A DNA stretch of 64,000 bases. It comes from Escherichia phage ukendt. The translations under genes were made by a program, and so were the position numbers. The first letter of the stretch is position 1, and every line of letters begins with the position of its first letter. The stretch lies in the sequence record NC_052661.1. One strand, given 5' to 3'. This document shows, piece by piece, positions 12,304-44,278 of this stretch. The notes under the pieces are model-generated. The model was given only the letters and a program-made list of their open reading frames with translations. It ran no database searches and had not been told where the DNA came from.

Positions 12304-12306
12304 TTG

Positions 12307-24407: not shown

Positions 24408-24414
24408 TAAAATA

Positions 24415-24436
24415 CCTCGCTTCGGCGGGGTTTTTT
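24415..24436 (+). terminator. rho-independent terminator after the tape measure gene
   Basis: CCTCGC-TTCG-GCGGGG (UUCG tetraloop) followed by TTTTTT. Confidence 0.75.
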
Positions 24437-24444
24437 CGTTTCCC

Positions 24445-24474
24445 TTGACACGAAGTTTCTATATGTGTTACAAT
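24445..24474 (+). promoter_or_regulatory. sigma70-like promoter (TTGACA, 18 nt, TG-extended TACAAT)
   Basis: Exact -35 at 24445..24450, TACAAT at 24469..24474, just after the terminator and before the baseplate genes. Confidence 0.55.
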
Positions 24475-24533
24475 AATCAATATGGGAAGATCTTGCATCT
24501 TCCTTTTGGCATTATCATTACTACGAGGTTATC

Positions 24534-27405: not shown

Positions 27406-27406
27406 C

Positions 27407-28033
27407 ATGGGAATCCCTTTTGACTTAAAGCTTGGACCAAACAACGACCTCATCATGGACGATGGGGATTTGGTCCTCACCACAACCAGAACAGAAATTG
27501 CAGCACAAACTCTTGGGATAACTCTGAACACGTATCGTGGAGAGTGGTTTTTAAATACTAACTTCGGTGTTCCTTACTTACAAGAGATTATTGGTGTTGC
27601 TAGAAAGAAAGATATTGTAGACAGAATATTTTTAGCGGAGATTGCCAAAAACGTTTACATAGATACAATAAACAGTTATAAATCTGCTTATGACATGGAT
27701 CAACGTTATTACTCAATGACAGTTATGGTGACAGTTGGAGCAGATACAGTAACATCCGTATTCAATACTCAACCTTCTGAAGAGTTTATTTACCCTGAAG
27801 CTGGTGAAGACAATGCAGCGATCATTTGTGAAGCTTACAGTATTGTTGAGAATTCGAATAGACTTTATCGCTTTATCAACTTTGTTGGTTTGCCACGTGA
27901 TACCTACTCTACTTGGTGGAATGAATGGTCTACAGAGTCAGCAGGGGAAAGAATCATGGTTAACGAAAAAGGTGATGCATTAGCTACAAACAATAATTTC
28001 GGTATAACAGCTATGACAGGAGTAGAAGAATAA
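27407..28033 (+). CDS. hypothetical baseplate protein
   Basis: 208-aa ORF, 1-nt spacing from the spike-like gene. Confidence 0.3.
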   Translation: MGIPFDLKLGPNNDLIMDDGDLVLTTTRTEIAAQTLGITLNTYRGEWFLNTNFGVPYLQEIIGVARKKDIVDRIFLAEIAKNVYIDTINSYKSAYDMDQRYYSMTVMVTVGADTVTSVFNTQPSEEFIYPEAGEDNAAIICEAYSIVENSNRLYRFINFVGLPRDTYSTWWNEWSTESAGERIMVNEKGDALATNNNFGITAMTGVEE

Positions 28034-28506
28034 TGGCAGATTTAACTACGATCAAAGTTTCTGATCTTACACAAACAACCTCTGTATCTGATACAGATTT
28101 CTTTGTAACAGATCAGGCTGGAATAACAAAGAAGACTTCTTTGAAAGTGCTGTTGAGTGGTGCAGGGGTAACTAGAAACCGTTTAAATGCACGGGGAACA
28201 GTAACTAGCACCTTGGCATTAGATATTAGTTCAGCAGAATATTTTTCGGCAACCTTATCTTCTGCAACGTGCACAATTAGTTTTACTAATATTCCAGTAG
28301 CAACGAATGCAGTTTTAAACTTTACTTTATCTTTGCGTCAAGGAAGTGGCGCAAATAAAGTCGTATGGCCTTCTTCTGTAAAATGGAGTTTTGGTCGTTC
28401 CCCAGTTTTGAGTTATCGTCAAGGTGCAACAGACACTTTTGAATTTATCAGTTATGATAATGGTGCAACTTGGACAGGTAGCTTAGTTTTAGCAGGAGTT
28501 ATTTAA
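28033..28506 (+). CDS. hypothetical baseplate/tail protein
   Basis: 157-aa Ser/Thr-rich ORF; start overlaps upstream stop. Confidence 0.3.
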   Translation: MADLTTIKVSDLTQTTSVSDTDFFVTDQAGITKKTSLKVLLSGAGVTRNRLNARGTVTSTLALDISSAEYFSATLSSATCTISFTNIPVATNAVLNFTLSLRQGSGANKVVWPSSVKWSFGRSPVLSYRQGATDTFEFISYDNGATWTGSLVLAGVI

Positions 28507-31382
28507 TGTCAAGAGTTAAGCACAATATTGACAACACGTTTCAGTTGATTGAAGGGTTGGTTCAGTTTTTGGAAAGAAATACTGGGCTTACCATAGATCC
28601 TACGGTTCAGCATTACATTATCAACCCACAAAACGTATTGGCGAACAACAGACACTTTATTAACTGGACAGCGCAGGAAGGGCAACCAAACGGTGACGCT
28701 ACTACCGAAGGTCAATCTGTGCTTATCACTGGTTTTGCTTATGCATATTTGGCTACAGGGGATAAAAAATATCTTGAATCTGCCGAGAAGTATTGGCAAG
28801 CCTATATAGATCACTTCTTCGGGGGCCAACCTATTCCTGATCCTCCGGCTAAGTATCGTCCCAACTGGATCATCAATGGTAAAGAACCACGTTTAGCACA
28901 TTACCCTCTCACAGATGATGGGTATCCTACGCACGGTGGGTTCAAAGGTAGCATGATGACTTGGATTAACGGAAGGACTGTTATTCCTAAAGGTGCACCG
29001 CATTGGGGGGAATACTTAGATAAAGCTTGGTTTGCTTTCAATGGCAATCTTGGTTGGAACTCCGTTAACGCAACAGTTTATGCAACTAATCCAGATGGTT
29101 CAACCAACTGGAAAGAATATGGAGATCAGTGGGACGTTGAATGGATTATAGATCGTCTAGGACGTAAAGTTGATTGGGATGGTAACATTTTATCTACAGG
29201 TCACAGCTTCGCAGAATATGGAACAGTGCAACTTAAAAATGCTTCTGTGAACGGTGATTATAAATTCAACTACGCTACATGCAACCCTGTAGAACACGGT
29301 GGATATCTGCTTAAGCGTAATGAGATGTGGCATAACCGTCCTGTAAACGTTCCGGTAGAGTTAGGTTATCAAGATAATGCTTCCGATGCTGAAACGTGGT
29401 GGTGTGATGCAAACTACTTGATGTATCAGATCACAGGAGAGAGAAAATACTGGCTTTGCTGGCAATCTTCTTTATTGTTGTGTCAAGACTACTCAAACAT
29501 CGATATGTTTGATAAATTCTTCCGTAGATCTACGACAGCAATAATTCCTTTTACAGATGGTATCTCTTATGATTACTCATACCCATCTACAGCAATACCT
29601 AAATATTCTCGTGACGAATTAGGATACACAGTAATTCGCCAAGATGTTGCAGCACAAACAACTCTAGAACAACAGGCAGTTTGGTTCAGAGTGGATCAGA
29701 ATTCAAAACTGCGTATTGAGTTTCAAGGTGTAGATGATGCAGGGGAAGGTGTTCTTTTCCGTCCAGAGTTAGAATTAAGCAAGACTAAGAGTGAAACAGA
29801 CACAGTGACATATCGTTGTGGCTTACCTCTTGGTGCAGCTAATATGACTAAGATGGATATACCTTTATCTAGTTTTATGCGCACTGAACCTCCTGGAGGT
29901 GGTGTATATATTATTGCTGAACCTAGAATAATTGTTGACTGGGGAAGCAATACTGTGGTACAATATAAATATGCAACTGGTATTGCTGGGACAAATAGTG
30001 ATCAGATAGTTTCTGCTAATATGGATTCAGATGGTGGTTTTACTATTGGATTTTGGTTAACACCAACTAAAACAGCTAATTTAAAATCTATTACGTATCG
30101 TTCATATGCAGATGATTTTAACATCACTATTACGGATTCCGCAGGTTGGAGATGGTGGGCCATGTTAGAAAAAACAAATTCTGCATGGGTTACTAAAGCT
30201 TTAAGTCCTGCTGATTTCAAATTAAGCACTTGGCAACCTAATCACAATGACACAGAGACAAAACCTTCGTCAATAAACCTGACTACTGTTGATCAGATCA
30301 ACATTGCATTGGATTCTGAACCTGCAAATGGCTTGACAGGGGCAATCGACTTTTATTGCGTTAACGATATCCCATCTTTGTATTCTTCAGCCGCTGGCGA
30401 TGATTACACAATGTATTTCAGGGTTACAGTTTCATCTGAAAATCCTTATACAGCAAAACTTGGAGATTGTACAATACTGGACTACAAACTTGACAGTTTG
30501 AATTATACTCCAGGAATCATTCCATTTTCCAATATTAGTGATCCTAACACAGCATTATATGACGGTTGGCGTGGTATTCCTTACCCAGGTTATCAATACC
30601 CATCCTTATATTGTTTTAAAGGGAGAGATATTGACTGGGTTCGTATGAACAACAGTATAGACTTTTTATATGATTCCCAAATGTGGTTTTATAATAAGTT
30701 TGCCCCTGTGATGCCTGGGCCAATGGCACAAGCTTATGTTTGGGATCGTTGGGATGCTCATAAATACGGAAACAAGAATGAGTTCACAATGTATCATTGG
30801 AACGATAAAGCTTGGGATGGTTATGAAGCACGAGCATTCTTCTGTGCGTGTCATACAGTATACGAACTGAAGCAACGAGGAGCAGAAGTTCCTGAAAAAC
30901 TTTTAACAGTTTGTAAAAACTGGATCAATTATCTGAAGTGGTTCCAAGATAACAACGAAGGAAGAACACCAACAATATTTTATCCCAACGGAGAAGTGGC
31001 TGCGCCTGTAGATGACTTTACAAGTCACATGTCTGCGCTCTTTATGGCGGGATGTGCTATAATGGGGATGGCTGGATATGATTCAGAAATTCCTAACATT
31101 AAAATAGTAGCAGATCGCTGTTTTGAACTTATTCAGGAAAATTATATTGTTCTTGGTCCTAATCACGTTATGAATGGTTGTTGGAGTGCTGCTCCTAGAC
31201 CAGACAGTGATAACGGAGTCTTCTTTGGCTTCCACGCCGGAGAGTTGTTACGTGGTTTTGGGTTGTATGCCTTATACAAAAAACTTAATCCCCAAAATGC
31301 ATTACCTGTTTTGGATTCGAGCAATATTCCTGCACTTACTGTTTTGACAATGGCAAACATTAGTGTGGACGTTACCGAGTAA
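28506..31382 (+). CDS. large tail-associated protein with helical, Trp/Tyr-rich enzyme-like domains (candidate polysaccharide depolymerase)
   Basis: 958 aa; Trp/Tyr-rich segments (e.g. FAYAYLATGDKKYLESAEKYW, WDGYEARAFFCACHTVYEL) resembling alpha/alpha-barrel glycosidases or lyases; in the fibre/spike block. Confidence 0.4.
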   Translation: MSRVKHNIDNTFQLIEGLVQFLERNTGLTIDPTVQHYIINPQNVLANNRHFINWTAQEGQPNGDATTEGQSVLITGFAYAYLATGDKKYLESAEKYWQAYIDHFFGGQPIPDPPAKYRPNWIINGKEPRLAHYPLTDDGYPTHGGFKGSMMTWINGRTVIPKGAPHWGEYLDKAWFAFNGNLGWNSVNATVYATNPDGSTNWKEYGDQWDVEWIIDRLGRKVDWDGNILSTGHSFAEYGTVQLKNASVNGDYKFNYATCNPVEHGGYLLKRNEMWHNRPVNVPVELGYQDNASDAETWWCDANYLMYQITGERKYWLCWQSSLLLCQDYSNIDMFDKFFRRSTTAIIPFTDGISYDYSYPSTAIPKYSRDELGYTVIRQDVAAQTTLEQQAVWFRVDQNSKLRIEFQGVDDAGEGVLFRPELELSKTKSETDTVTYRCGLPLGAANMTKMDIPLSSFMRTEPPGGGVYIIAEPRIIVDWGSNTVVQYKYATGIAGTNSDQIVSANMDSDGGFTIGFWLTPTKTANLKSITYRSYADDFNITITDSAGWRWWAMLEKTNSAWVTKALSPADFKLSTWQPNHNDTETKPSSINLTTVDQINIALDSEPANGLTGAIDFYCVNDIPSLYSSAAGDDYTMYFRVTVSSENPYTAKLGDCTILDYKLDSLNYTPGIIPFSNISDPNTALYDGWRGIPYPGYQYPSLYCFKGRDIDWVRMNNSIDFLYDSQMWFYNKFAPVMPGPMAQAYVWDRWDAHKYGNKNEFTMYHWNDKAWDGYEARAFFCACHTVYELKQRGAEVPEKLLTVCKNWINYLKWFQDNNEGRTPTIFYPNGEVAAPVDDFTSHMSALFMAGCAIMGMAGYDSEIPNIKIVADRCFELIQENYIVLGPNHVMNGCWSAAPRPDSDNGVFFGFHAGELLRGFGLYALYKKLNPQNALPVLDSSNIPALTVLTMANISVDVTE

Positions 31383-31390
31383 GGGGTAAA

Positions 31391-33544
31391 ATGAAACAAG
31401 CTATATTTACTGTCACGCGAGACAAGAGAGTAAATGCGAGTTCATTTAACTACACGACTGTTGACGGAACAGCAGTCGCTGGTAGAGATTATATTGCAAA
31501 ATCGGGAACACTTGTGTTCCCTGATGATGCTGATTCTGCTACCATTGTGGTTGAAGTATTTGAACGACCAAAGAACTCAATAGATCTTAACTTCTCCCTC
31601 CAAGTTTCAGGGATTAGTCAAAATAATATGATGGTTGAAACAATCATCAATTGTATTATAACTACTATCCAAGAAAATACCACTCCAATAACTTGGACTA
31701 CAAAAGACGTTAAAATGTTCTCTCCTATGTATTGGACAATAGATTCTCAAGCAACGGAAAGTTGTTCTATTGTATCTCATGGAGACTCTTTTACTGCAAG
31801 ATTTGTAAACAGAACAACAGCAGGTTTGGCAGGGGTTATCTGGAGCACAGTTGACAAATATGACCATAAAGGTGTTGGGTATTTACCCCACACAGATTTA
31901 AGTTCAGAGAAACTTTGGTTTAAAATGGAAATTAGTCAAAACATGCCAGGTTTTAAAGAAGAACCTTTGGTGCCGACTTTGACTGTAACTCTCCTGGATA
32001 AAAGTGTTCATTATGTCAGTTTAGGATTCTACGCTTCAGATATTTCAGAAGATGGTAAAACAGCTACAATCAAGTTAGATTTTGGTAATATCTTTTCTGG
32101 CCCTAATAATGATATTCCTTTGGATATGAGTGCTGTAGATAATATTTTCTTCTCTTTGATTACAGCAAGGTATGAAGAAATAGAAGAGATTGTACCTATT
32201 GCCAGTCTAGAGGCTTGGTTTACTTTCACTCTTCTTGAACCTACTTCTGGTTACAGTATGATGAAAGTCAGCAACCTTGTCCAGCCTGAACATGATATTC
32301 GCATGTGCACATCTTATGATGATATGTATAACCTGACTCCAGAGAGAGTTATTTATAATACATATGCACTAGGTTATCGTGGAATGATTAACCATTATAA
32401 CGGAATGTCTCACTATTATGAGTTCTCATGGAACGGAACATCTTGGGCTTTAAATAGATCTGTTTTCCTGAATCCGGCTACAGAAGCTTGGCTTAACAGT
32501 TTCCATTCTATAGCTAATGAAAATGGCTACACAATAATGAACTCTTTGAGTTTTGAGTTGATGAGCACAGTTTGTCCTGTTGAATGGGTCCAGCATGATT
32601 GGAACGATGCTCTTGCAGCAACAGGGTATAAGCCTCCTAGTTACGTGTTGTCTCCAACTATTGACGAAGGCATGGAATATTTGCAAAATGTTATTAACAA
32701 AATAGCATCTATTTCTCAAGCTAATAACATTCCAGTCGTCATTCAAATTGGTGAACCTTGGTGGTGGTATAATACAGCAAGTAAAATGCCTTGTATATAT
32801 GATTACACTACCAAACTGGCATTCAATACAGAAACAGGCTTATTTGCACAAGATGCAGGAACAATAGATAATTATAAAACAGGAACGCCATTTGACGAAT
32901 ACTATGCATTTCTGTCTCGTAAACTAGGGTTAAGAGTTACAAAGTTTGCAACAGACACCAGAGCAACTTATCCTGGAGCTAAAGTAACATTGCTTCCGTT
33001 CTTACCATCAATTATCGGCAACGGTTTGATGGAGAAAGTTAACTTTCCGTCTGATTACTACATTCCTGAAGCTTTTGATTTTTATTGTTCAGAATGTTAC
33101 GACTGGCTTCTGGAAGGTAAAATGATGAAAGCATTCGATGCAATTACCATACCACATGAAAAATTAGGTTTTGAATATTCTGATATTCACTATCTTTCGG
33201 GTTTTGTTCCAGATGCTACTCTTGCACCTTTGTATGGCTTCGATCCTGAATCAAACTACCGCACGTATCTTTGGAAAATGATTATAGGTAATATAGTGTT
33301 GAACGCCAATAAGTTTGACGGACTTACACAATATATATGGGCCTATCCTCAAATAATGCATGATTCTATCACGGTAGTTAATTCTCAATCCCAAGTTTTC
33401 TATATGGGTAACGTGCCTTTGAACGTCTATTTACAGGATATCACTCTTAAACAGGCAAATGTTGAGATTGCCACCATAAGTGGAATTACATTAGCCACTA
33501 AATCTGGAGAAGATTTAGTAACAACACAAAAATTTTATATATAG
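31391..33544 (+). CDS. tail fibre/spike protein
   Basis: 717-aa ORF co-linear with neighbouring spike genes; no catalytic motif recognised. Confidence 0.4.
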   Translation: MKQAIFTVTRDKRVNASSFNYTTVDGTAVAGRDYIAKSGTLVFPDDADSATIVVEVFERPKNSIDLNFSLQVSGISQNNMMVETIINCIITTIQENTTPITWTTKDVKMFSPMYWTIDSQATESCSIVSHGDSFTARFVNRTTAGLAGVIWSTVDKYDHKGVGYLPHTDLSSEKLWFKMEISQNMPGFKEEPLVPTLTVTLLDKSVHYVSLGFYASDISEDGKTATIKLDFGNIFSGPNNDIPLDMSAVDNIFFSLITARYEEIEEIVPIASLEAWFTFTLLEPTSGYSMMKVSNLVQPEHDIRMCTSYDDMYNLTPERVIYNTYALGYRGMINHYNGMSHYYEFSWNGTSWALNRSVFLNPATEAWLNSFHSIANENGYTIMNSLSFELMSTVCPVEWVQHDWNDALAATGYKPPSYVLSPTIDEGMEYLQNVINKIASISQANNIPVVIQIGEPWWWYNTASKMPCIYDYTTKLAFNTETGLFAQDAGTIDNYKTGTPFDEYYAFLSRKLGLRVTKFATDTRATYPGAKVTLLPFLPSIIGNGLMEKVNFPSDYYIPEAFDFYCSECYDWLLEGKMMKAFDAITIPHEKLGFEYSDIHYLSGFVPDATLAPLYGFDPESNYRTYLWKMIIGNIVLNANKFDGLTQYIWAYPQIMHDSITVVNSQSQVFYMGNVPLNVYLQDITLKQANVEIATISGITLATKSGEDLVTTQKFYI

Positions 33545-33552
33545 GAGTAAAA

Positions 33553-35967
33553 ATGTCAACTACAATTACTAATTTACCCGAAACATCAAAAGTTAATGGT
33601 TCAGATTACCTGGTTTTAGATCAACCTGATAAAACTGTTAAAAGCACAGTTTCCAACTTTCTTGCTGACACTGGGGTGGTTTTAGCCACCCAGTTGAAAG
33701 ATACAGATGGAGCAGATTTAATACAATCCTCAAATGGTAATACTGTTCAGGAAGAGTTGAATAACAATCTTCTTAATGATCGTGAACAGTGGCGTCGTAG
33801 TCTTGCTGAAGCAGGGCTAACACTGGTAAGCGGTAGCTTTGAGGAAGGCGCTACAGTAAATAGTAAAACGGATGCTGTTTGGCACATTTCTGTTGGACAG
33901 TGTTATACATGGCATGGCGCTTTCCCTAAAACTGTTCCTGCTGACTCAACCCCTACATCAACCGGTGGTGTTGGTCCTAGTGCGTGGGTTAGTGTTGGTG
34001 ATGCGAGTTTGCGGTCAATAGCTCAATATAGAGCCAATAACATCGAAGCGTTAAAATCATTGCCGCTTGCAGTTGGAGACATTGTTAATATTGCTGGATA
34101 TTATGATGTTTTTGATGGAGCGCAGCATTACCGAGTGATTAGTGATGCAGATGATGGAACAGGAGTTCAGCTCAATAATGGTTTATGGGCAAATATTATC
34201 ATTAATGGCGATGCTTGTGTTGATTGGTTCGGGGCTAAAGGTGACGGTGTAGCTGATGATTGGTGGGCTATCAATAAAGCCATTAATGCTTCAATTTCTA
34301 CCGCTTATCAGGGCGGTTGGTGGGAAACGTCAAGTAGAAACCCTAAATTTAAGGTGCATCTCAGTCGCCGCTCTTATCGTATTACTCGGCAAATACTACT
34401 ACCTCCTTACATAGAGTTTTATGGTATGGGTTCGCGCTGGTATTTTTCTGGTGATAATAATTCTCGCTTAATCCCTGATTTTGATAATCCGTTGCAATTC
34501 GCTGTGAAATCTGCTAGCTATATTGTTGAAACCGGTGAACTAGCACCTGAGGGGTGGTATTCTGGGGTGGTTTGGGTTGACCCAAAAAAACTAACGACTT
34601 GTCATGGTATTAAAACTTATGGATATAGCATCGAACCAACAAAACAAATTTTAGGCGGTATAAGACTGATAGCGAGCCCAATTTCTCATGTATATGATAT
34701 ATTCATAACAAATGTTGATTTTGGAGTTTTACTGAATTGTTCATGGGTGAGTAAGGTTGACGTTAAAACTCATCATAATAAATGTGGGGTTATGTCTAGT
34801 CATGATGGTAATAACACTCACGTGGATGGTTATTTTACAGGGACAGAAATCAAACCGCTTGATGGTAATCCTTACCTCAACCCAATAGAGTCTTTAGACC
34901 CTACAACAGGGCTCCAAGACAAATCTATATCTGACCCAGACAGTAAAATAGGTGTGATTTTTTATTGGTCACAGGGGTCAACAAGTACGAATATGACGTG
35001 TGAGGGTAACACTATTTCGTTGGCTGTGGCTAAGGGTGGTGCTGATGTAAGGTGTTTATACTCAGAACGTAATTCAGATTGTACATTTACTGGGTACAGT
35101 TCACTAGTTACAATTGGTGAAATAACTGGCATTGGTGACGGTGGAACTTTTGAGCTTGGTGTAAATAATACTATTTCGTTAGACAAAGACACTCAGTATG
35201 GTGTCGCTAAACGATTTAAGTACGTGAGCGAGTGGGGTAATAAGATGTTTATGCCCTCTAGCTGGAAAGAATACACCAAAGGTTGTTTAGTTAAAGGATT
35301 TGATTATAGCGAAATTTTTGTAGATGCGATAAATGGAGATGACACTAATGTTGGTTCCAGTCTTTACCCTGTGAAAACTTTGGAGAGAGCTCTAACGCTT
35401 GTGAATTCAGTGTATACTACATCTAACTTGCTAAGCTCAGTGCCGAGGGATAGAGTAATAAAGTTAGTAGGCTCAGCAACATACTATCCAGACGGACAGC
35501 ATAGGTTCATAGGTGGATCGTTGACAATTACAAAAGCTGATAACTCACGACCGATTGTTAATTTATCAAAACCAATCCGAATTAACGACACATCTCTAGT
35601 ATTTGAGGAAGTAAATTTAGTGCGACCAACAGATGACCACGGGAATGGTGAGAATGGCGCAATTTTCCTTGAGGATGGGAGTAATGAAGTCAGATTGAAA
35701 AACTGTGATCTAAGTCTACAAAAATTCAGCTTCTTATATCCTACTTGGGGTTTTGCTGGAATATGTACCTTGGTGTTACACGGGGTTAGTGTTACTGGTG
35801 ATTCAACAACAAGAATGATACAAACAGCTGATGGATATCATGATTTGCACTTGTTTAATGTAATTAGCTACGAGACAACTTACACTGGAGGAATAGAGTC
35901 AAGACTAGATAAAGGCTATGATATACCAGCAGATAGACGTGGTCATATATTGGGTGTATCAATATAA
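33553..35967 (+). CDS. tailspike with pectate-lyase-like beta-helix domain
   Basis: 804 aa; WFGAKGDGVADDWWAINKAINAS (GDG-x-DD signature of pectate-lyase-type beta-helices); shares the FPK..VPA..STP..TGG..AW motif with two other spike genes. Confidence 0.6.
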   Translation: MSTTITNLPETSKVNGSDYLVLDQPDKTVKSTVSNFLADTGVVLATQLKDTDGADLIQSSNGNTVQEELNNNLLNDREQWRRSLAEAGLTLVSGSFEEGATVNSKTDAVWHISVGQCYTWHGAFPKTVPADSTPTSTGGVGPSAWVSVGDASLRSIAQYRANNIEALKSLPLAVGDIVNIAGYYDVFDGAQHYRVISDADDGTGVQLNNGLWANIIINGDACVDWFGAKGDGVADDWWAINKAINASISTAYQGGWWETSSRNPKFKVHLSRRSYRITRQILLPPYIEFYGMGSRWYFSGDNNSRLIPDFDNPLQFAVKSASYIVETGELAPEGWYSGVVWVDPKKLTTCHGIKTYGYSIEPTKQILGGIRLIASPISHVYDIFITNVDFGVLLNCSWVSKVDVKTHHNKCGVMSSHDGNNTHVDGYFTGTEIKPLDGNPYLNPIESLDPTTGLQDKSISDPDSKIGVIFYWSQGSTSTNMTCEGNTISLAVAKGGADVRCLYSERNSDCTFTGYSSLVTIGEITGIGDGGTFELGVNNTISLDKDTQYGVAKRFKYVSEWGNKMFMPSSWKEYTKGCLVKGFDYSEIFVDAINGDDTNVGSSLYPVKTLERALTLVNSVYTTSNLLSSVPRDRVIKLVGSATYYPDGQHRFIGGSLTITKADNSRPIVNLSKPIRINDTSLVFEEVNLVRPTDDHGNGENGAIFLEDGSNEVRLKNCDLSLQKFSFLYPTWGFAGICTLVLHGVSVTGDSTTRMIQTADGYHDLHLFNVISYETTYTGGIESRLDKGYDIPADRRGHILGVSI

Positions 35968-35989
35968 ATAATTGATATTATGCTTCATG

Positions 35990-36022
35990 GTAATTGTGGG
36001 TGAATCACTCACAATTACTTTT
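35990..36022 (+). terminator. long near-perfect inverted repeat after the tailspike gene, followed by TTTT
   Basis: GTAATTGTGGGTGA / TCACTCACAATTAC arms (one mismatch), then TTTTAG. Confidence 0.5.
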
Positions 36023-36547
36023 AGGTACTACAGTTGATAATTCAGATTGATACATTGGATTAGCAGGTGCGTGTACTACTAGCACTTGAATTTTGATACA
36101 TAAATCCGGCACCCTCCCTCACCCTCAACGCGCCCAATTGCCTCCATAGGAGGCTCATTACCTCCTTGTGGGCTTTGTTGTAGGCATGATTGCTGTTCAA
36201 TATTTTAGGCACTAACCAGCCGACATTGTTGATGGAAATATAAACGTAAACAACAATGCATATAACTCAGTTGTTGTGGCACTAAATTCTTACGTAGGTT
36301 ATAGGTTGTTGTAAAACAAAACCCCGACTCGGCGGAGAATTATAAAGGTACTATCATGGACTTCATTACGATTCAAACAAACTATGTCCTGCAAGCGCAT
36401 GTCATCGCCATGTGATAAAATGATGAAAACATATCGTAGCAGGGTTAATCTTGTCTTTAGTTACTATCGTACTAACTCAAAGTGTTGTCACTACCACTGC
36501 AAGCCCCCTCCAAAGAGGGGCTTACTTAGAAAAACAAAGAGGTTTAT

Positions 36548-36856
36548 ATGAACGAATTATTCTCACAAGGTGGTAAGGGTTCAACAGGAATCCTAACCAA
36601 CAAGCAAGCAGTAGCCCGTCACTTTGGGGTTAAACAATCTGAGGTTGTTTACTTCTCAGTAGGTGCTCTGCTTACAGGTTACAAAGTCATCTATGACAAA
36701 GTGTCACAGAGGGCTTACTCATTACCTGCTGATATTGCCCCAGGTACTACTGCCATTAGTCTTAGTGCTGCTGTACTTGTGCATTCAGCGGGTTCTGTAG
36801 ACCTTGGGGAATTAGCTATATCTCGTGATTTAAAAAGTAATGAGAACGCACTATGA
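36548..36856 (+). CDS. orphan tail-spike module (homologous to an internal segment of the 41160..44213 spike)
   Basis: ARHFGVKQSEVVYFSVGALLTGYKVIYD...GSVDLGELAISR aligns with ARKYGLLDDEVAYATAGQSLTGIKALYD...GSVDLSALAVER in the 1017-aa spike; preceded by 580 bp without ORFs. Confidence 0.35.
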   Translation: MNELFSQGGKGSTGILTNKQAVARHFGVKQSEVVYFSVGALLTGYKVIYDKVSQRAYSLPADIAPGTTAISLSAAVLVHSAGSVDLGELAISRDLKSNENAL

Positions 36857-37095
36857 GAAAATTTTTAATAGGTATGTTCTGTACATATCCTGATAATAAA
36901 GTCAGTTCTACTAAAGTCTGGAACGCTGTAGGCATGTCGGTTATGACAGGCATGTTTATCTTTTTAGGAATAGAAAAAGAAATTCCTGAATGGATGGGTT
37001 GGGCTTTTGTTTTCATGATAACTCCTTCTCGCCTCATGAAAAATCTTATTGATTTACGCTGGGGCAGATCACAATCTACCAAAGAGGATGACTAA
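36853..37095 (+). CDS. small two-TM membrane protein (holin-like or exclusion-type)
   Basis: 80 aa; hydrophobic segments VWNAVGMSVMTGMFIFLGI and WMGWAFVFMITPSRL; charged C-terminus. Confidence 0.35.
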   Translation: MRKFLIGMFCTYPDNKVSSTKVWNAVGMSVMTGMFIFLGIEKEIPEWMGWAFVFMITPSRLMKNLIDLRWGRSQSTKEDD

Positions 37096-38582
37096 TGGAC
37101 GAATATGGTTTGACAGATGCGGGATTTGTAATCCCGACTTTTGACGATGTTTTAAACAACTACATGACAGCAGTAAAAAACACATTTGGTGCAGATGCAG
37201 CCACTTCGGAAGATACTGTGATCGGACAACTGTTTAGAATAATTGCATACACAGATTACACATTGTGGGAAGGTATGCAAGGGGTTTATAATACTCAAAC
37301 ACTGGATGGTGCAGAAGGTATTTATCTTGACGAAATCTTTTCTAAACGTGGTTTCTATCGAGCAGGGGCAGCAGCAAGTACAGGTTATGCCTATGTTAAG
37401 AGTAATAACAAAGCAGCTTGGACTTATGAGTTAGGCACAGATATTTACTTCAACTCTGATAGTGATATGAACTACTATGTTAGCACACCAACTATGTTGA
37501 ATGCTAAGATTGCAGCTTATCAAATTTCTCGTGCTAATGCAACTGCTACAGGTGTTCCAAATATTACTTTTTATGCACAAAGTGCGATAGATGGAGGACT
37601 AAACAGTAAAACACTTGCACCTGGTTCTTCTACATTTATAACCGATCTTGAAACTTTTATCAAGGCGAATTTAACAGAAGCTGATCGTAGTCTTGTATTT
37701 TCTGATTCAGGTAACTTATCAATTGGTTTTACTTCTTTAACCAGTGATACTCCAGTGGGGCTGGTAACTCCTATTAAATTTTATGCTAGTGTTCCGGTTG
37801 GAACCAAGTGGAGTGAGATTCCGGTAGTTGCAGCAGAGAAAGGATACAATCCTGTTGGTGTGGAGTCTATTACAGGGATATCTTCTACCTTTACAGGTTA
37901 TCTTGACAGTGGTAACTTTTATTCATTTTCTCCTGGTCGGGATGTTGAGACAGACGCAGAATTCCGCTCTCGTTTCAATGACAACGTTGATGAAGCTAAC
38001 GCAGGGACACGAGCAGCTATTGTGAAAGCTCTGTTACTTACAGATGGTGTTACTAAGGTGAAGATTTATGATAACCCTACATTACATGATCAAGAACACG
38101 CTCCAGCTATGACTTTCCAGACTATAGTTTATGGTGGCAGTGCAGAAGAAATTGCAAATGTTATCTATAAAACCAAACCAATCAACACTTTGACACACGG
38201 AACAACAAACATAACTGTTACAACGGAAGACGGAGGACAAGAAATTATTCGTTTTTCTCCTGGTGCTTCTGCTACATATTCCGTAAAACTTGTTTATCAA
38301 ACTGTCAACGGAACAACTTTAAGTGGAACAGAAAAACAAAACATTGTAGAAGCTTTACAAAACCTGCAAGCTTACTTTGAATTAGGTTCTTCAGTAACGA
38401 ACGATCAAATCAAAGGTGTTATTTATGCAGCACTTGCTTTTGGACGCTTGACTTCTCTTCGTGTTTATGTTAAACTTAATACTGAGGATGACAGTAAATA
38501 TACAGAGAATAATATAGTTCCTGCTTATAATGTTGTCCCTTCTTTTGACCTTGATAACATTTCTTACGAGTATGGAGTGTAA
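37095..38582 (+). CDS. baseplate wedge protein (J-like)
   Basis: 495 aa; position immediately upstream of a fibre gene and its assembly chaperone, matching the wedge-fibre-chaperone order of contractile-tail phages. Confidence 0.5.
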   Translation: MDEYGLTDAGFVIPTFDDVLNNYMTAVKNTFGADAATSEDTVIGQLFRIIAYTDYTLWEGMQGVYNTQTLDGAEGIYLDEIFSKRGFYRAGAAASTGYAYVKSNNKAAWTYELGTDIYFNSDSDMNYYVSTPTMLNAKIAAYQISRANATATGVPNITFYAQSAIDGGLNSKTLAPGSSTFITDLETFIKANLTEADRSLVFSDSGNLSIGFTSLTSDTPVGLVTPIKFYASVPVGTKWSEIPVVAAEKGYNPVGVESITGISSTFTGYLDSGNFYSFSPGRDVETDAEFRSRFNDNVDEANAGTRAAIVKALLLTDGVTKVKIYDNPTLHDQEHAPAMTFQTIVYGGSAEEIANVIYKTKPINTLTHGTTNITVTTEDGGQEIIRFSPGASATYSVKLVYQTVNGTTLSGTEKQNIVEALQNLQAYFELGSSVTNDQIKGVIYAALAFGRLTSLRVYVKLNTEDDSKYTENNIVPAYNVVPSFDLDNISYEYGV

Positions 38583-38584
38583 AA

Positions 38585-39214
38585 ATGGCAGTGAGTGTTG
38601 ACCATGTAACAACTTGGGCCAGTATCAATGAAGACGTTAAAAACCTTCTGATTGAAGATTTTAAATCTTCTCCTAACATTGTCAAGCTCCTCTACATCGT
38701 ATCCAGTGAAAAGCAAAAGATAGATCAGGCAATGATCTATCTTGCTAAACACCGCTTGATCTCCACAGCCACAGGCAAATACCTAGATATTTTAGGAGAA
38801 GAAATGGGGATTGAACGTAATGGCTCTGATGATGAAGAGTATAGAACAATATTAAAAATCAGGGCTTACCGCGTAGCCTCATCGGGGACTCGTGGTGACA
38901 TAATTGATATCTTCGCCCGTTTCACAGGGACAGAGCGTGAAACGCTTAATACTTATGTAGGTTTGAATAAAACCTTTGACGTGTTTTTCTACAACCTGTG
39001 TCTTCAATCTGATCAAGCTTTAGAGCAGTTACTAAGTGTTTTCCCTATTATTAGTAGCTACCGTCTTGGAGCAAAAGCAGGATCAGCTTTTGGTTTTAGT
39101 TCTTATTATGCTACCAAACCGCCTCATGGTATTGGTGGTTTAGGTTCCCTGTACATGGAATCTACTGGGGATGAAACAGGACGCATGTGTACGCTTCTCA
39201 AGCAAATAGATTAA
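38585..39214 (+). CDS. baseplate/tail-fibre-attachment protein (tentative)
   Basis: 209-aa ORF between the wedge gene and the fibre gene. Confidence 0.35.
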   Translation: MAVSVDHVTTWASINEDVKNLLIEDFKSSPNIVKLLYIVSSEKQKIDQAMIYLAKHRLISTATGKYLDILGEEMGIERNGSDDEEYRTILKIRAYRVASSGTRGDIIDIFARFTGTERETLNTYVGLNKTFDVFFYNLCLQSDQALEQLLSVFPIISSYRLGAKAGSAFGFSSYYATKPPHGIGGLGSLYMESTGDETGRMCTLLKQID

Positions 39215-39223
39215 GGAGTTTAA

Positions 39224-40255
39224 ATGGCGAAGCCAATATATTATCCTGACTGGGCTACACAAACTGTAACGCTCCCAGGAACTTTAAACACAAACAAAAT
39301 TAGACCTAAAGAAACTATCCGCACAGTCGGTATGGACTATGGTCAGATCATGACTTGCGAAGAAATGAACTGGATTCTTAATAATATCGGTTTGTGGATT
39401 CGTTATTTGGTTGATGATTTTATTCCTACTTTGCCTGATACTTACTTGCCTTTAGTGGGAACTAAGATTACAATGGCTGGTGATGCTACTGGTGAGGCTA
39501 CTTGGAATGGTAATAAAGAAGTTATTTTATCTATACAAGTTCAAGATAACAGCCATAATCACTTATCGGCAAACATTACAGACGCTACTAGTTCAATAGT
39601 AAAACCAAATGTATTGGTAAAACGTGATGCAGGTGGTGCTATTTACGGTGGTGATATTTATGTTAATGGCACTTCCACAACAGATCCTGCAACCCTGTTC
39701 TTCAAAAACTTTGCAGGACAAACAAATGGTGAGATTTCTGCCGAGTATCAAACCGGAGGCCAGCTTTACATCTATCGTAGAAATCCTAGCACAGGTGGCG
39801 TTGCGGCTGGCGTTCGTTTATATGATGCTGGTTATGTTCTAATTGACAATCCAAGATCGAATAGTGGACAAGATACTTCAAACGGAAACGCTTTGGTCCG
39901 CTTAGATTATTTGAACTCTCGTTTAAGCTCTCTTCAAAATACATTACAAACAAACATTAACAGTGTTCAAAATAATTTGAATAATGTTAATAGCAATTTA
40001 AATTCTCGTATTGATAATTTGCAAAACAGCTTACAAAGTCAGATAAACTCGCTTCAAAGTCAAGTGAATGCACGTGTAACGGCAGTTCGTATTAATGGAC
40101 GTATTCAGTTAGGTGTATCAGAATCCCCTTACTATGCTGGTCACGTTATGACTGGTTGGGCTTTCGGTGATAAGAAAGAACTTCGTGGTGCTTCTTATTG
40201 GTCTGGTCCATTGCAGTACTATGTAAATGGTAGATGGGTAACAGTAAGCTACTAA
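39224..40255 (+). CDS. tail fibre protein
   Basis: 343 aa; Asn/Gln/Ser/Leu heptad-like repeats (LQNSLQSQINSLQSQVNARV) typical of trimeric fibre shafts; followed by an assembly chaperone. Confidence 0.5.
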   Translation: MAKPIYYPDWATQTVTLPGTLNTNKIRPKETIRTVGMDYGQIMTCEEMNWILNNIGLWIRYLVDDFIPTLPDTYLPLVGTKITMAGDATGEATWNGNKEVILSIQVQDNSHNHLSANITDATSSIVKPNVLVKRDAGGAIYGGDIYVNGTSTTDPATLFFKNFAGQTNGEISAEYQTGGQLYIYRRNPSTGGVAAGVRLYDAGYVLIDNPRSNSGQDTSNGNALVRLDYLNSRLSSLQNTLQTNINSVQNNLNNVNSNLNSRIDNLQNSLQSQINSLQSQVNARVTAVRINGRIQLGVSESPYYAGHVMTGWAFGDKKELRGASYWSGPLQYYVNGRWVTVSY

Positions 40256-40270
40256 GTAGGAGAATAAATA

Positions 40271-40810
40271 ATGAATATTGTTTACGATGGTTTTGAACTA
40301 TATACTCCAGAACCTAATGAAGAGACGCTCTTTTTAATTGGTTTAGGGGTAGGATTTTTAAGAGATTCCTCTGGCAGGGATTGGTATGATTTATCGAAAG
40401 AGTTAGATGCTAAGTATCCTGATGCATATTTTGTTAGTTTAAATACTGATAACTTAGTCTTAGGTGTAGGGGAAGATGCAGTAGGATTATTCCCCCACAA
40501 TATGCGTGTTGTTGTTACAGATAACGTTCCAAAAGGTATGGCTGAATACCCAAGACAATGGAGATATAATGGAACAACTTTTGAAAAACATAACACTTGG
40601 ACGCAAGAAGATGTGGATACTACACTAGAGACAGAATTGACGTGGGCTGGAAACCAAATAGGTGCTTTGACAGATTTGCAAGAGTTACAAGGTTTGTCAG
40701 AGGAACAAGAAAAATGGTTAAAAGCTGTTAAGTTATATCGAGCATCTTTAGTTTTGTTAGATCTGAAAGACTTGAACAACATTCAATGGCCCGATAGACC
40801 TACTCAGTAA
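40271..40810 (+). CDS. tail fibre assembly chaperone
   Basis: 179 aa; C-terminal LYRASLVLLDLKDLNNIQWPDRP resembles the conserved end of fibre-assembly proteins; sits right after a fibre gene. Confidence 0.6.
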   Translation: MNIVYDGFELYTPEPNEETLFLIGLGVGFLRDSSGRDWYDLSKELDAKYPDAYFVSLNTDNLVLGVGEDAVGLFPHNMRVVVTDNVPKGMAEYPRQWRYNGTTFEKHNTWTQEDVDTTLETELTWAGNQIGALTDLQELQGLSEEQEKWLKAVKLYRASLVLLDLKDLNNIQWPDRPTQ

Positions 40811-40820
40811 GGGATACAGT

Positions 40821-41156
40821 ATGGAATTTCAAGAAGCATGGGGACTTGCCAAGGATGCAATCATCCCTTTAATCGGAGTCATCTGGTTCTTTTTCAAACA
40901 AAAAATGGATAAATTCGGCTCTGATCTTGAGGAAATGGAGGAGAAAAGTCGAGAGCTAGAGAAGAAGTTGGTCTTTGTTGAATCAACTTATGCAACTAAA
41001 GCCGAACTTACCCAGATGCTAAATCAAATTAACTCTACATTAATGGCAAATAATAACACTCTTGAGCAAAAAATTGAAAAGATTATGGACCTCAAGAATG
41101 CGACTATTCAAATGATGCTAGATGACATAGTTAAACGTACACAGAATAAGGGGTAA
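40821..41156 (+). CDS. small membrane-anchored coiled-coil protein
   Basis: 111 aa; N-terminal hydrophobic segment AIIPLIGVIWFFF then a charged coiled-coil. Confidence 0.3.
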   Translation: MEFQEAWGLAKDAIIPLIGVIWFFFKQKMDKFGSDLEEMEEKSRELEKKLVFVESTYATKAELTQMLNQINSTLMANNNTLEQKIEKIMDLKNATIQMMLDDIVKRTQNKG

Positions 41157-41159
41157 TTA

Positions 41160-44100
41160 ATGGCAACATTCCCAACATATCCAGCAACGTCTCTTGAACA
41201 GGGCGTAGATCTGGTTATTTTCTCGTCTAACCAACTCCATGATGTTATTAATGGAAGTGCTACAGAGAGTATTGAAACAGAATCAGGGTTGATACCAACC
41301 CTGAGAAAAGCCCTTGTTGACAACTTTTTCTTTAAAAGCCCATTAGATTGGGCGCAAGGCACAAACGAAACAGTTTTTAACCAACTTCGTTATTTCCAGA
41401 ATGGAGTATTGAGCGGTTATTACTACGCCCCTAACGCTACATTGGTTAACCCAATCCCTATGCAAGGGACTCCAGTAGGAGATAACAACTGGGTATTGTG
41501 GGGACTGAAAACAGAACAATTGGCAACAGAAGTCACCCCTTGGGTATATTCTGGTGCAACTGGTTATGAAACAGTAATCAGTCCTCCCTACATCTTTGAT
41601 AGTGCTATTGTTACGATCAATGGTGTTATTCAGGTTCTGGGAGAAGCTTTCCGCATAGAAGATAGTAAGATCATCTTATCTGAACCTTTGGGACACGATC
41701 CTGCGACAGGACTGCCAAACAAGCTTTTTGCTTATATTGGTAAAATCGTAGCTTCAGCAGATACAGATCCTAACCTAGAGAATCGTCTTGTTAGTTTAGA
41801 AACAAAAACGGAAGAACTAACAGAAAGCATGGATAAAGTCCCTCTGCAAACTATTGCTCGTAAATATGGTTTGTTAGATGATGAGGTAGCTTATGCTACA
41901 GCGGGTCAATCATTAACAGGGATTAAAGCTCTGTATGATCCAGTAGCACAATCTTCCTACACATTGCCTCCTAACATTACAGGGACGTTAACATCTTTGT
42001 CTGTTTCTGGAGTAATGACTTATTCTGGTGGTTCTGTAGATCTTTCTGCACTAGCTGTTGAACGTGGACAATTTGTTCATTTACCTACAAGCTTTGGTAA
42101 TAACGTAACCTTGACAGCTAAAAACCAGACGATTGGACGTGGTGCTGGTCGATATCGTTGGGCTGGAAGTTTACCAAAAAGTATTTTGGCCTCCGATACA
42201 TTGGAGACAAGCGGTGGATTAGGTCCAAATGCATGGGTTCTGACCAATACAGAAGGACTGTTAACCCCTCGTGGTGGAACATACAACGATTTATTCGATG
42301 TTGTCTACTTGTCAGAATTTGCTAACAACACAACAACATATACCACACCAGAAGCAGCTTTCCAAGCGGCACTGTTAGCAGCAAAAGCTTCGAAAAGCAA
42401 GATTCTCGATGCTTACGGTTGCGATATGACTTTCACGACAAGCTCTTTTGATATTCAAGGTATCACTTTGCGTGGGGGTGTGTTCCGTGGTCAACGCGAC
42501 TATCGTGTGCAAAATGCTACAGTAGAAGGCACAACTTTCCGTAACTCTCGTGTTATGTATTGGGGTGGTGCTGTGCGCATGTTCGATTGTTTGTGGGACG
42601 GTGCTCCTCGCGCAGGTCAAGTTGGTAGCTTGGTATTCCAAGGCAACCCAATATCAGGTACTTTTGAAATTGATAATTGTACTTTTAAAAACGGGTTGTA
42701 TGGCATCCTTCAACAAGGAACAGGGGAACCAGTAACACGCGGTGTCTTCCGTAACCTTACCTTCATGGACATGCAAGGTGATGCAATAGAACTGAACGTC
42801 ATCAATAAACATTATGATGATGGTTGTGTGATTGAGAATATTTACCTGTCTAATATCGATGGGACTAACGCTCCTATTCCTCTGTCCAACTGGGGTATCG
42901 GTATTGGTGTAGCTGGTAAAGGACCATATGGTTACGGAATTCCTGATGATCAATATTGCAAGAATATTACAATTCGTAACGTTTTTGCAAAACGTTGTCG
43001 TCAGATTGTCCACGTAGAAGTTGGTCGTAATATTTCTATCGAAAACATTCATGGCGATCCAGATCAAACTGTATCTGTTGGAACAGGTTTGGCAACTGGC
43101 GCAGTTGTAATGTATGGAAGTAAAGATTTTACGATTGATGGTGTTTATGGAGAGCCTAAAACAGACGGTAGCACACTTGCAAGTAATATCCGTATGATTT
43201 ATTTGGAGTGGGGAACTAACGCAGTTCTGGACGAAGAGGGTAATCCGGTAGTTCCGGCACAGGGTAGACCTTCAAACCCATGCTTTAACTATTCTGTTCG
43301 TAACATTCACACCAAAACTGGGCGGGTTTTTGCAGGAGTTTCCGCTGGGCCAGGTTATGAAAACAGAGTCAGCTTTGAGAATATCCGTTGTGCTGCGTTG
43401 CAGTTGTTCGGTGTAGCTTCTTGGCTTTCAATGTCTAACATCACCTGTAATATCTTTGATTGTGTTGGTCAACCTGAATCTGGTCCAGGGACATTTTATG
43501 ATGGATTCTTCCGTAGAGAAAAATCTGTTCTTGAGATGGTTAACGTAAACTGTTACCCAGATGGCAAGACGATGGTTACTGGTCGTCCACAGTGGAGCCG
43601 TTGCCGTTACTCGGATATTCATCGTGTCAACTGTAATGTTGAAGCTAATATGTATACCAATATCGCAGGTGGTATTGGAGCTATTGTAGGGACAACTGGC
43701 AAAGTTTATTACTTAGAGCCTAACCCTAGCCGAAACATTGATGGGATGCATTTCCCAACAGGGAAGGAGTTTGACAAAGGGGATATGATAGTCAAAGCGG
43801 ATAATACGTTCTTCCTTGTAACAACAAGCGGGGCATACATTCCAGATATCCCAGCTTTCGGTATTCGAGCTACACAAGCAGGAGATACCTTCCTGACACA
43901 GAACTTGACTCCTAATGGGACAGCAACAAACGCTTCTTGGTTGTATCACTATCCTCTGTCAGCAGGAACACGTATCCGTATTCCTGGTGCTGGTGTAGGT
44001 GGAGCAGATTTGGACACAGTTATTACTCGTGCACCTTATCAAGATAATGATACGTGGACTAACCCAGTTAAAATAGACATTGCAGATCCAATTGTAACGC

Positions 44101-44213
44101 CTACGAGTGCTGGAGTTAGAATCAAAACCATACCTAACGATTCTAGTAATGTTTCTGTAGGTAATACTGCGGTTATTCGCCCAACACCAGTGGTAGATGT
44201 GCCAACAACCTAA
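41160..44213 (+). CDS. tailspike with parallel beta-helix domain
   Basis: 1017 aa; repetitive beta-helix-like segments (NCTFKNGLYGIL, NITIRNVFAKRC, NISIENIHGD); shares N-proximal modules with two other spike genes. Confidence 0.6.
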   Translation: MATFPTYPATSLEQGVDLVIFSSNQLHDVINGSATESIETESGLIPTLRKALVDNFFFKSPLDWAQGTNETVFNQLRYFQNGVLSGYYYAPNATLVNPIPMQGTPVGDNNWVLWGLKTEQLATEVTPWVYSGATGYETVISPPYIFDSAIVTINGVIQVLGEAFRIEDSKIILSEPLGHDPATGLPNKLFAYIGKIVASADTDPNLENRLVSLETKTEELTESMDKVPLQTIARKYGLLDDEVAYATAGQSLTGIKALYDPVAQSSYTLPPNITGTLTSLSVSGVMTYSGGSVDLSALAVERGQFVHLPTSFGNNVTLTAKNQTIGRGAGRYRWAGSLPKSILASDTLETSGGLGPNAWVLTNTEGLLTPRGGTYNDLFDVVYLSEFANNTTTYTTPEAAFQAALLAAKASKSKILDAYGCDMTFTTSSFDIQGITLRGGVFRGQRDYRVQNATVEGTTFRNSRVMYWGGAVRMFDCLWDGAPRAGQVGSLVFQGNPISGTFEIDNCTFKNGLYGILQQGTGEPVTRGVFRNLTFMDMQGDAIELNVINKHYDDGCVIENIYLSNIDGTNAPIPLSNWGIGIGVAGKGPYGYGIPDDQYCKNITIRNVFAKRCRQIVHVEVGRNISIENIHGDPDQTVSVGTGLATGAVVMYGSKDFTIDGVYGEPKTDGSTLASNIRMIYLEWGTNAVLDEEGNPVVPAQGRPSNPCFNYSVRNIHTKTGRVFAGVSAGPGYENRVSFENIRCAALQLFGVASWLSMSNITCNIFDCVGQPESGPGTFYDGFFRREKSVLEMVNVNCYPDGKTMVTGRPQWSRCRYSDIHRVNCNVEANMYTNIAGGIGAIVGTTGKVYYLEPNPSRNIDGMHFPTGKEFDKGDMIVKADNTFFLVTTSGAYIPDIPAFGIRATQAGDTFLTQNLTPNGTATNASWLYHYPLSAGTRIRIPGAGVGGADLDTVITRAPYQDNDTWTNPVKIDIADPIVTPTSAGVRIKTIPNDSSNVSVGNTAVIRPTPVVDVPTT

Positions 44214-44222
44214 TGGAAATAG

Positions 44223-44242
44223 AGAGGGGGAAATCCCCCTCT
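44223..44242 (+). terminator. hairpin after the spike gene (putative terminator)
   Basis: AGAGGGGG-AAAT-CCCCCTCT; pyrimidine-rich but weak U-tract. Confidence 0.4.
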
Positions 44243-44278
44243 TCTTCCAATAGAATGGTCTAATAATAGGAGAGATAA

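Follow-up and report, generated by a model that had tools for sequence, protein, structure and literature searches.

Mosaic boundaries and linker sequences of phage genomes are accounted for by the modular theory and, in lambdoid phages, by illegitimate recombination at microhomologies. The interval described here covers positions 35968–36547 of a 64,000-nucleotide stretch (hereafter, the window) of Escherichia phage ukendt (NC_052661.1), a genome of the Phapecoctavirus type (Stephanstirmvirinae, ~150-kb myoviruses), and separates a variable tailspike gene from a gene encoding 102 amino acids. This interval, called the island, resembles known mosaic boundaries in the sharp identity cliffs at module edges, and in the short microhomology found at a novel joint. 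It differs in that several joints are stacked within 350 bp, and have nameable sources. The reading favored, and held with good confidence, is that the island is made of flank DNA which hitchhiked along with successive horizontal swaps of the tailspike receptor-binding cassette, and lies atop the spacer proper to the phage. The island is not a gene, nor a sequencing artefact, nor a structured RNA.

Among described systems, the closest is the exchange of receptor-binding domains in Gamaleya-, Justusliebig-, Kutter-, Kayfuna- and Kagunaviruses, where conserved motifs before and after the domain have been proposed as putative recombination hotspots (Pas et al. 2023, Virol J 20:174, PMC10408124). 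The downstream motif measures 20 nt, and is found 0–19 nt after the stop codon. As in that system, exchange crosses families, and a terminator-like GC hairpin is located downstream of Gamaleya- and Justusliebig-type spikes; the 5' motif of the cassette is matched as well, because the edge of the exchanged block in the window (33910–34005) coincides with the Tail_spike_N motif (PF18668, amino acids 93–150). In contrast, ~340 bp of imported flank occupy the position of the downstream motif in the window, and the GC hairpin is degenerate, and displaced to 36322–36337. We infer that this hairpin is probably the 20-nt "motif three" of the above study, the sequence of which is published only as an image.

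Cross-family exchange of receptor-binding domains at conserved motifs is therefore an already published process, and the island is an unusually legible scar of an ordinary event. The terms "terminal repeat", "flank" and "intergenic" are absent from the main text of PMC10408124, which was not searched for "ssb". A non-exhaustive literature search found no earlier description of a relic of a T7-type terminal repeat, of an ssb stump, or of the microhomology joint reported below.

Segments of the island

Region 26000–46000 of the window is 97–98% identical to ECML-183-2, nieznany, tuntematon and other phages across 83–86% of its length, and the part without a match in these relatives corresponds to the receptor-binding domain of the spike and the island. 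By comparison of homologous loci, the island resolves into a mosaic of five segments with separate histories, rather than into a single unit. Segments are listed below by window coordinates and strand, along with the exchanged block.

33910–36221 (+): exchanged block, from the receptor-binding domain through the spike stop codon into the island (first 254 bp)
35968–36019 (+): segment A, 3' untranslated tail of the spike cassette, with a hairpin at 35990–36018 and then TTTT
36020–36116 (+): segment B1, matching the unique DNA ahead of the right terminal repeat in podoviruses of the T7 supergroup
36117–36153 (+): segment B2, start (37 bp) of a T7-supergroup direct terminal repeat, up to and including CCTCC-ATA-GGAGG (36141–36153)
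36142–36221 (−): segment C, dead 3' fragment of an E. coli-type ssb gene, reading NIEQQSCLQQSPQGGNEPPME
36144–36153 (unstranded): B/C junction, CCATAGGAGG, microhomology of ~10 bp
36222–36310 (unstranded): segment D, 89 bp of orphan DNA
36311–36547 (no strand assigned): segment E, native Phapecoctavirus spacer
36311–36377 (+): segment E1, degenerate GC hairpin (36322–36337, CCCCGACTCGGCGGAG) and TATAAAGG box
36378–36547 (+): segment E2, hyper-conserved non-coding DNA, ending with a hairpin (36502–36524) and the ribosome-binding site AAAGAGG (36537–36543)
Start of the T7-supergroup repeat, for comparison: …CCCTCACCCTCAACGCGCCCAATTGCCNCCATAGGNGG

The exchanged block is 95.2% identical over 2312 bp to the Logan contig L006, which measures 3954 bp, features the gene order of Gamaleyavirus (G7C/SP5M-like), and encodes the metagenomic protein P0001. 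Identity to L006 is 90–96% in each sub-segment (coding region, A, B1, B2 and C), and ~40% just outside both edges. Because identity is uniform inside and the edges are sharp, the first 254 bp of the island were inherited as one block together with the receptor-binding domain. The 5' edge consists of the conserved motif coding for PF18668, common to TSP7_1, L006, SP5M and PS3; beyond 36221, L006 and SP5M stay together, and the window diverges. An earlier inspection of the letters, referred to as the sequence-only reading, had suggested for the island either a recombination hotspot for exchange of spike cassettes, or a decayed gene, or a structured RNA. The first suggestion comes closest, since the initial 254 bp of the island are pieces of foreign flank DNA, and belong to a 2.3-kb block shared at 95% with a Gamaleyavirus-like contig.

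Segment A was found only in L006, where the G·U pair is at another position. The inverted repeat that the sequence-only reading had noticed is real, and is made by 14-nt arms (35990–36003 and 36005–36018) complementary at 13 of 14 positions, the sole mismatch forming G·U in the RNA. No other repeat of this kind occurs in the window, and none in 10 shuffles; the inverted repeat folds at −20.9 kcal/mol (z = −6.65). The hairpin is probably a terminator inherited from the donor; as a Rho-independent terminator, the sequence 35990–36022 features an AT-rich stem followed by UUUU only, and is not called by a consensus scan. In the Phapecoctavirus loci examined, segments A to D are missing entirely.

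Segment B (36020–36153) is 89% identical to positions 40777–40910 of Providencia phage PS3 (Kakivirus, Autographiviridae). The counterpart of B1 (PS3 40777–40873) lies downstream of the last PS3 gene, a tail fibre, and the short terminal repeat of PS3 is annotated from 40874, which corresponds to window position 36117. Weaker matches were found in PSTRCR_114, MTT and KpV17Sklif. The 42 bp at 36112–36153 match at 95% the genome ends of >100 Klebsiella podoviruses, and several of these ends carry the annotation of a direct terminal repeat. Drulisvirus F19, too, has its tail fibre/depolymerase gene in last place, ahead of the right repeat. The CCTCC-ATA-GGAGG sequence is present, as previously noticed, at 36141–36153, in a stretch of 62% GC against a background of 39%, and its fold is marginally above shuffles (z = −2.2). 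It is the hallmark CCNCC-ATA-GGNGG hairpin of the T7-supergroup terminal repeat: nt 1–38 of the T7 repeat read TCTCAC…CCCCCATAGGGGG, with CCCCCATAGGGGG at nt 26–38. The window sequence 36117–36153 aligns to the repeat starts of PS3, F19 and A221, and the hairpin occurs ~25 nt in, at the same offset. Segment B as a whole is homologous to ~97 bp at the end of the unique DNA, and to the 37 bp with which the repeat opens. T7-type repeats, however, are found in two direct, full-length copies (~120–230 bp) at genome ends, while the piece in the window is internal, measures only 37 bp, is single copy in the 64 kb analyzed, and sits between tail genes of a ~150-kb myovirus. Segment B2 is a relic, and not a genome end. 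No island segment has a second copy within the window. At ~2935, L006 is missing 10 bp (GCACCCTCCC) relative to window 36108–36117, between the short direct repeats TCCGGCACCC and TCCCTCACCC; the loss resembles a slippage deletion inside the T7-type relic.

Segment C aligns, by tblastn with the SSB of phage IME207, to ~21 codons of the C-terminal linker of SSB (…QQSPQGGNEPPM); the IME207 protein ends in …QQSPQGGNEPPMDFSDDIPF. A 32-bp stretch of the segment matches, at 97% identity, the 3' ends of ssb genes in ~90 Guernseyvirinae-type siphoviruses from Salmonella and Escherichia. Segment C has no OB fold and no start codon, and in-frame stop codons occur just upstream. In the window …NEPPME is still present, but repeat DNA takes over from there, so that the acidic tip PPMDFDDDIPF is lost; the full tip is retained, along with its stop codons, in SP5M (…NEPPMDFDDDIPF), which shows what the window lost. 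In IME207 (Shuimuvirus) ssb is convergent with the tail fibre (spike) gene, 36 bp apart. The window copy shares with the Guernseyvirinae-type gene the linker codons and the orientation relative to the upstream spike, but is a pseudogene fragment. The suggestion of a decayed gene was therefore right as to the kind of sequence and wrong as to its identity, the relic being an ssb 3' end on the opposite strand and not a frame-disrupted spike N-terminus.

The B/C junction was analyzed by aligning repeat starts (PS3, F19, A221), chimeras (window, L006) and ssb tails (IME207, SP5M, phiHAO78-1). Both chimeras change partner inside CCAT(A/C)GG(A/G)GG. The hairpin of the terminal repeat (CCATAGGGGG) and the P-P-M codons of ssb (CCATCGGAGG on this strand) happen to share ~10 bp; hence the CCTCC-ATA-GGAGG hairpin is a junction formed at a microhomology. 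The arms in L006 read CCCCC (left) and GGAGG (right), and so make an imperfect palindrome, which is what a chimera should show. The homologies, the boundaries of the block and the junction may all be read directly in the aligned sequences.

Segment D gave no significant local alignment, as gauged with shuffles, to any fetched locus, no exact match in viral, metagenome or genome contigs, and no match in phage, E. coli genome or plasmid collections. Homology of segment E to TSP7_1, UP17, W22 and U1G begins exactly at the spike stop codons of those phages. In relatives an intact CCCCGC-TTCG-GCGGGG hairpin directly follows the spike stop; the GC hairpin of the window is found 355 nt downstream of the stop, is degenerate, and is flagged by the terminator scan on the minus strand only. 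The same GC hairpin in IME207 is a bidirectional terminator between the convergent spike and ssb genes.

The island is free of open reading frames (ORFs) of at least 60 amino acids on both strands, as originally observed; the longest measure 55 (36384–36551, plus strand) and 50 amino acids (36060–36212, minus strand). It ranks third among the gaps of this type in the window, and is the largest outside the tRNA cluster (~5.3–8.9 kb). Ten tRNA genes (Met, Arg, Ser, Asn, Thr, Gly, Gln, Pro, Ile, Met) are clustered at 5344–8932, in other large ORF-free stretches; none was found near the island. The gap had been held to be atypical for a tightly packed phage late operon, a view to be corrected, as a non-coding spacer of 232–655 bp is normal at this position in the genus: spacers measure 232–249 bp in TSP7_1, UP17, PD114, Ro121 and EF1-1; the one in nieznany reaches 546 bp and contains two small ORFs, and the one in ZCKP1 reaches 655 bp. 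Judged by these lengths, the window spacer is long, but not unique.

Related relics in other phages

The ssb relic is found downstream of spikes in at least five Gamaleyavirus genomes (SP5M, PhAPEC5, PhAPEC7, phi G17, PBM-2). SP5M carries an unrelated receptor-binding domain, yet features segment C in the same place. The relic is also located downstream of the tailspike in phiHAO78-1, a 44-kb podovirus with the spike at the genome end; a 72% match in this phage, considered as possible homology to the terminal repeat, was discarded, because the match is the ssb relic. In a P22-like E. coli prophage (L023, NZ_OW968111, 3930–4156) the tailspike is followed after 72 bp by a relic of an ssb tail (…QQSPQGGNEPPMDSDD), ahead of intS. 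In the Gamaleyavirus genomes, in phiHAO78-1 and in the P22-like prophage the site is always just downstream of a spike.

A longer relic of the T7-type repeat, measuring 77 bp and 86% identical to PS3, was found in the Ackermannviridae phage A221 (L010, 3318–3762). It is fused at a G-run to Gamaleyavirus backbone, which includes the first ~25 codons of a 110-amino acid gene and a GC hairpin, and lies between two large genes annotated just as hypothetical proteins. The N-terminal region of the upstream gene is ~74% identical at the DNA level to the 5' regions of the L006 and SP5M spikes. A221 is a second, independent case of a T7-type repeat relic. Fragments of the Gamaleyavirus 110-amino acid gene are found in the same spacer in the Phapecoctaviruses G1 and ZCKP1, and the Phapecoctavirus spacer is a dumping ground for cassette flanks. 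Segments B and C were found in no other Phapecoctavirus record.

Formation of the island and rival readings

In the favored reading, receptor-binding domains would be exchanged by a 5' crossover within the conserved Tail_spike_N-coding motif (33910–34005), and a 3' crossover at any downstream homology or microhomology. As the latter falls downstream of the spike, donor DNA after the spike gene is imported too. Three layers may be distinguished. In the oldest, the source would be Guernseyvirinae-type siphoviruses, in which the spike converges on ssb across the GC-hairpin terminator; Gamaleyavirus podoviruses would have received the ssb 3' end along with a spike, and now carry the relic as backbone. 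In the second, the donor would be a podovirus of the T7 supergroup whose spike gene is the last one ahead of the right terminal repeat, an order seen in Kakivirus PS3 and Drulisvirus F19. A Gamaleyavirus would have gained from it a new receptor-binding domain and the terminator hairpin, followed by 97 bp from the right end and by 37 bp of the terminal repeat, joined through the ~10-bp microhomology between the repeat hairpin and the P-P-M codons of the ssb relic. In the third, block 33910–36221 would have moved from a Gamaleyavirus to this Phapecoctavirus, and come to lie ahead of the native spacer.

Order and direction of the transfers would follow, by parsimony, from which lineage holds a given segment as backbone. 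The block moved most likely from Gamaleyavirus to Phapecoctavirus, since segment C is Gamaleyavirus backbone, and no other Phapecoctavirus record has B or C. Similarly, segment B moved most likely from a T7-like phage to Gamaleyavirus, since it is found at the functional ends of many Autographiviridae, and in one Gamaleyavirus lineage only. The next relatives of the receptor-binding domain (57–58%) are in Proteus prophages, which fits a donor among phages of Morganellaceae, such as Providencia phage PS3. Two parts of the island are likely to work: the hairpin with TTTT after the spike, as terminator or stabilizer of RNA 3' ends, and the native hairpin with the ribosome-binding region ahead of the 102-amino acid gene.

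Several points weigh against this reconstruction. Direction relies on parsimony rather than on a dated phylogeny, and segments B to D are assumed to be non-functional. No T7-like donor with the receptor-binding domain of the window came to light: viral contigs scanned for exact patterns gave only PS3 itself or nothing, a metagenome scan gave nothing, and protein searches found a 96% relative in a Gamaleyavirus context and 57–83% relatives in prophages or another myovirus, with no T7-like carrier. Segment D has no identifiable source, which leaves the 3' junction of the last transfer undefined. Finally, the extreme conservation of E2 is not explained by a pure-scar model. The myovirus carrying the 83% relative (L007, Logan ERR11525759 contig) also features a helicase gene (9544–12432) with Hint/LAGLIDADG matches, suggesting an intein.

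A possible, though doubtful, alternative is that the relics are kept because they work as arms for homologous exchange. Shared 3' linkers would be provided by the ssb relic, by the GC-hairpin terminator and by the piece of T7-type right end; with these and the Tail_spike_N motif, phages of different families could exchange the receptor-binding domain as a cassette. This alternative overlaps the hitchhiking reading, and differs only in invoking selection for the flanks. Consistent with it, the same ssb relic is found downstream of spikes in at least five unrelated phage groups, the T7-type repeat relic recurs in A221, and 134 bp at 89% identity to a Kakivirus end would permit homologous recombination. 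However, B/C-type junctions (window and L006, A221) are at microhomologies located in different places, which points to illegitimate joining and not to reuse of arms. Moreover, the relics decay, as denoted by frameshifts, by the 10-bp deletion in L006 and by the degenerate GC hairpin in the window. The study of Pas et al. bears on both sides, since hotspot motifs are proposed at either side of the receptor-binding domain, but their presence is uncorrelated with the number of exchange events (PMC10408124).

A second alternative, rather unlikely, concerns E2 only, which would be a functional element regulating the downstream 102-amino acid and baseplate genes, and the real feature of the island; it could act as a promoter with 5' leader and hairpin, as an attenuator, or as a small RNA. 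Across eight fetched loci, which represent three genera (Phapecoctavirus, Justusliebigvirus with PD114, and Gamaleyavirus with one genome, U1G), E2 is 95.7–99.4% identical. The adjoining 102-amino acid gene is 74–88% identical in the same loci (96.8% in UP17, over a partial match of 124 nt), and the baseplate gene of PD114 78%; taken together, the contrast is between 96–99% in E2 and 74–88% in adjoining genes. The hairpin ahead of the ribosome-binding site had been described as having a 9-bp stem; it exists (36502–36524), but its sequence, AAGCCCCCTCCAAAGAGGGGCTT, has one C more than reported, and the stem is bulged. By itself the hairpin is not significant relative to shuffles (z = −1.3). The CCCCTC…GAGGGG stem is retained in relatives, with a CAAA loop in most. 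In nieznany the same stem carries a TTCG loop and is followed by TTTTTT, in the shape of a canonical terminator. In G1 (L014, ~1640–1665) the hairpin is the exact reverse complement (CCCCTCTTTGGAGGGGG versus CCCCTCCAAAGAGGGG), an inversion which keeps the stem. Retention of the structure in spite of these changes argues for a function, as does a TGnTAAAAT motif, resembling an extended −10 box, at 36413. On the other side, E2 is present in only 20 phage records, out of >200 related ones, and is therefore dispensable; its fold is no better than shuffles (z = −1.0), and has no Rfam match. A scan found no canonical sigma-70 promoter on the plus strand of the island, though canonical ones occur elsewhere in the window. 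Near-identity across genera fits recent lateral spread equally well, and variation is too little for covariation analysis. The pattern of E2 suggests either recent lateral spread or strong constraint.

Textbook regulatory spacers are found in the window at 24408–24533 (GC hairpin and T-run terminator, then TTGACA-N17-TACAAT) and at 12304–12345 (TTGACA-N17-TATTAT); nothing comparable is found on the plus strand of the island. The 55-amino acid ORF overlapping E2 was rejected as a gene, because it has no Pfam or PHROG match, and its frame is not conserved, being broken relative to all relatives by the extra C of the window.

As an extension of the homology-arm idea, for which the odds are again low, the flank relics would not be passive: the Tail_spike_N motif at one end, and the terminator, the ssb relic and the T7-type right-end relic at the other, would mark the limits of a quasi-mobile receptor-binding cassette, and E2 would separately be a regulatory element that spreads laterally. 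Such a cassette would pass between at least six groups: Guernseyvirinae-type siphoviruses, Gamaleyavirus, podoviruses of the T7 supergroup, P22-like prophages, Stephanstirmvirinae and Ackermannviridae. If true, the internal T7-type end would offer large myoviruses a site at which co-infecting podoviruses could recombine directly, through their linear, resected ends.

That the whole island is one structured non-coding RNA is highly improbable: it has three hairpins, the first of which is very stable, but only that one folds above shuffles, the CCTCC hairpin is a recombination junction, the segments have four evolutionary origins, and relatives lack A to D entirely. An Rfam 15 scan of 35000–37500, with E values up to 10, found no credible family, the only matches being MIR529 (18.6 bits versus 75) and SCARNA7 (11.4 versus 65), eukaryotic and at chance level.

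Least probable, to the point of being negligible, is that a frameshift, a sequencing error or a chimeric assembly has disrupted a gene, for a spike or for something else. The length of the gap is unusual for this operon, and G1 has an ORF of 147 amino acids in the equivalent spacer, but this ORF is a different relic fused to E2. A decayed spike was rejected, as the six-frame translation of the island has no spike-like frame, and its sole protein-like remnant is the ~21 ssb codons on the minus strand; the 50-amino acid minus-strand ORF, tried as a gene, simply overlaps the ssb relic and the repeat. No intact homologous ORF is found in relatives, and the spacers of those bearing ORFs (G1, nieznany, ZCKP1) have differing, non-homologous inserts. 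The sequence is not a chimera, because the same A-B-C order occurs at 95% in an independent assembly from another sample.

Flanking genes and significance

The genes flanking the island are:

33553–35967 (+): variable tailspike gene, 804 amino acids, with a genus-type N-terminal anchor followed by a pectate-lyase-like receptor-binding domain
36548–36856 (+): 102-amino acid gene, a stand-alone copy of the spike N-terminal anchor domain which ends just short of the PF18668 motif

The Tail_spike_N motif spans residues 93–150 of the 804-residue spike. The N-terminal ~155 residues are 85–93% identical to other Phapecoctavirus spikes; the receptor-binding domain is at most 26% identical to any record in the phage collection, and 96% identical to P0001. 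The sequence-only reading had placed the island between two spike-related genes. This holds for the upstream gene, a spike; the downstream one is merely a copy of the anchor domain. PHROG matches of the latter cover only positions 1–95 (or 327–420) of full-length spike families, and the gene is 82.6% identical at the DNA level to the 5' end of the L006 spike. It was found in all relatives examined, and is followed by baseplate genes. It could be either a functional adaptor or the fossil of a spike with a deleted receptor-binding domain. The top match to the backbone (98.1%) is MG065650.1 ("Campylobacter phage B15"), labeled with Campylobacter jejuni as host; the label is odd for a genome of the Phapecoctavirus type, and may reflect a contaminant or a mislabel.

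Gaps of this type are not to be annotated as non-coding RNAs or small genes. Swaps of tailspike receptor-binding domains across families are well known, but the direction and the route of transfer are usually unknowable. The co-transferred flanks, i.e. the T7-type genome end and the ssb stump, are provenance tags, and the microhomology joint is defined at nucleotide resolution. The tags point to a chain leading from a T7-like podovirus to the N4-like Gamaleyavirus, and from this to a 150-kb myovirus. The tags are met again in a phage of the Ackermannviridae and in a P22-like prophage; searching for them systematically could therefore map the flow of host-range genes among families of therapeutic phages, and could also suggest natural crossover points for the engineering of receptor-binding domains.

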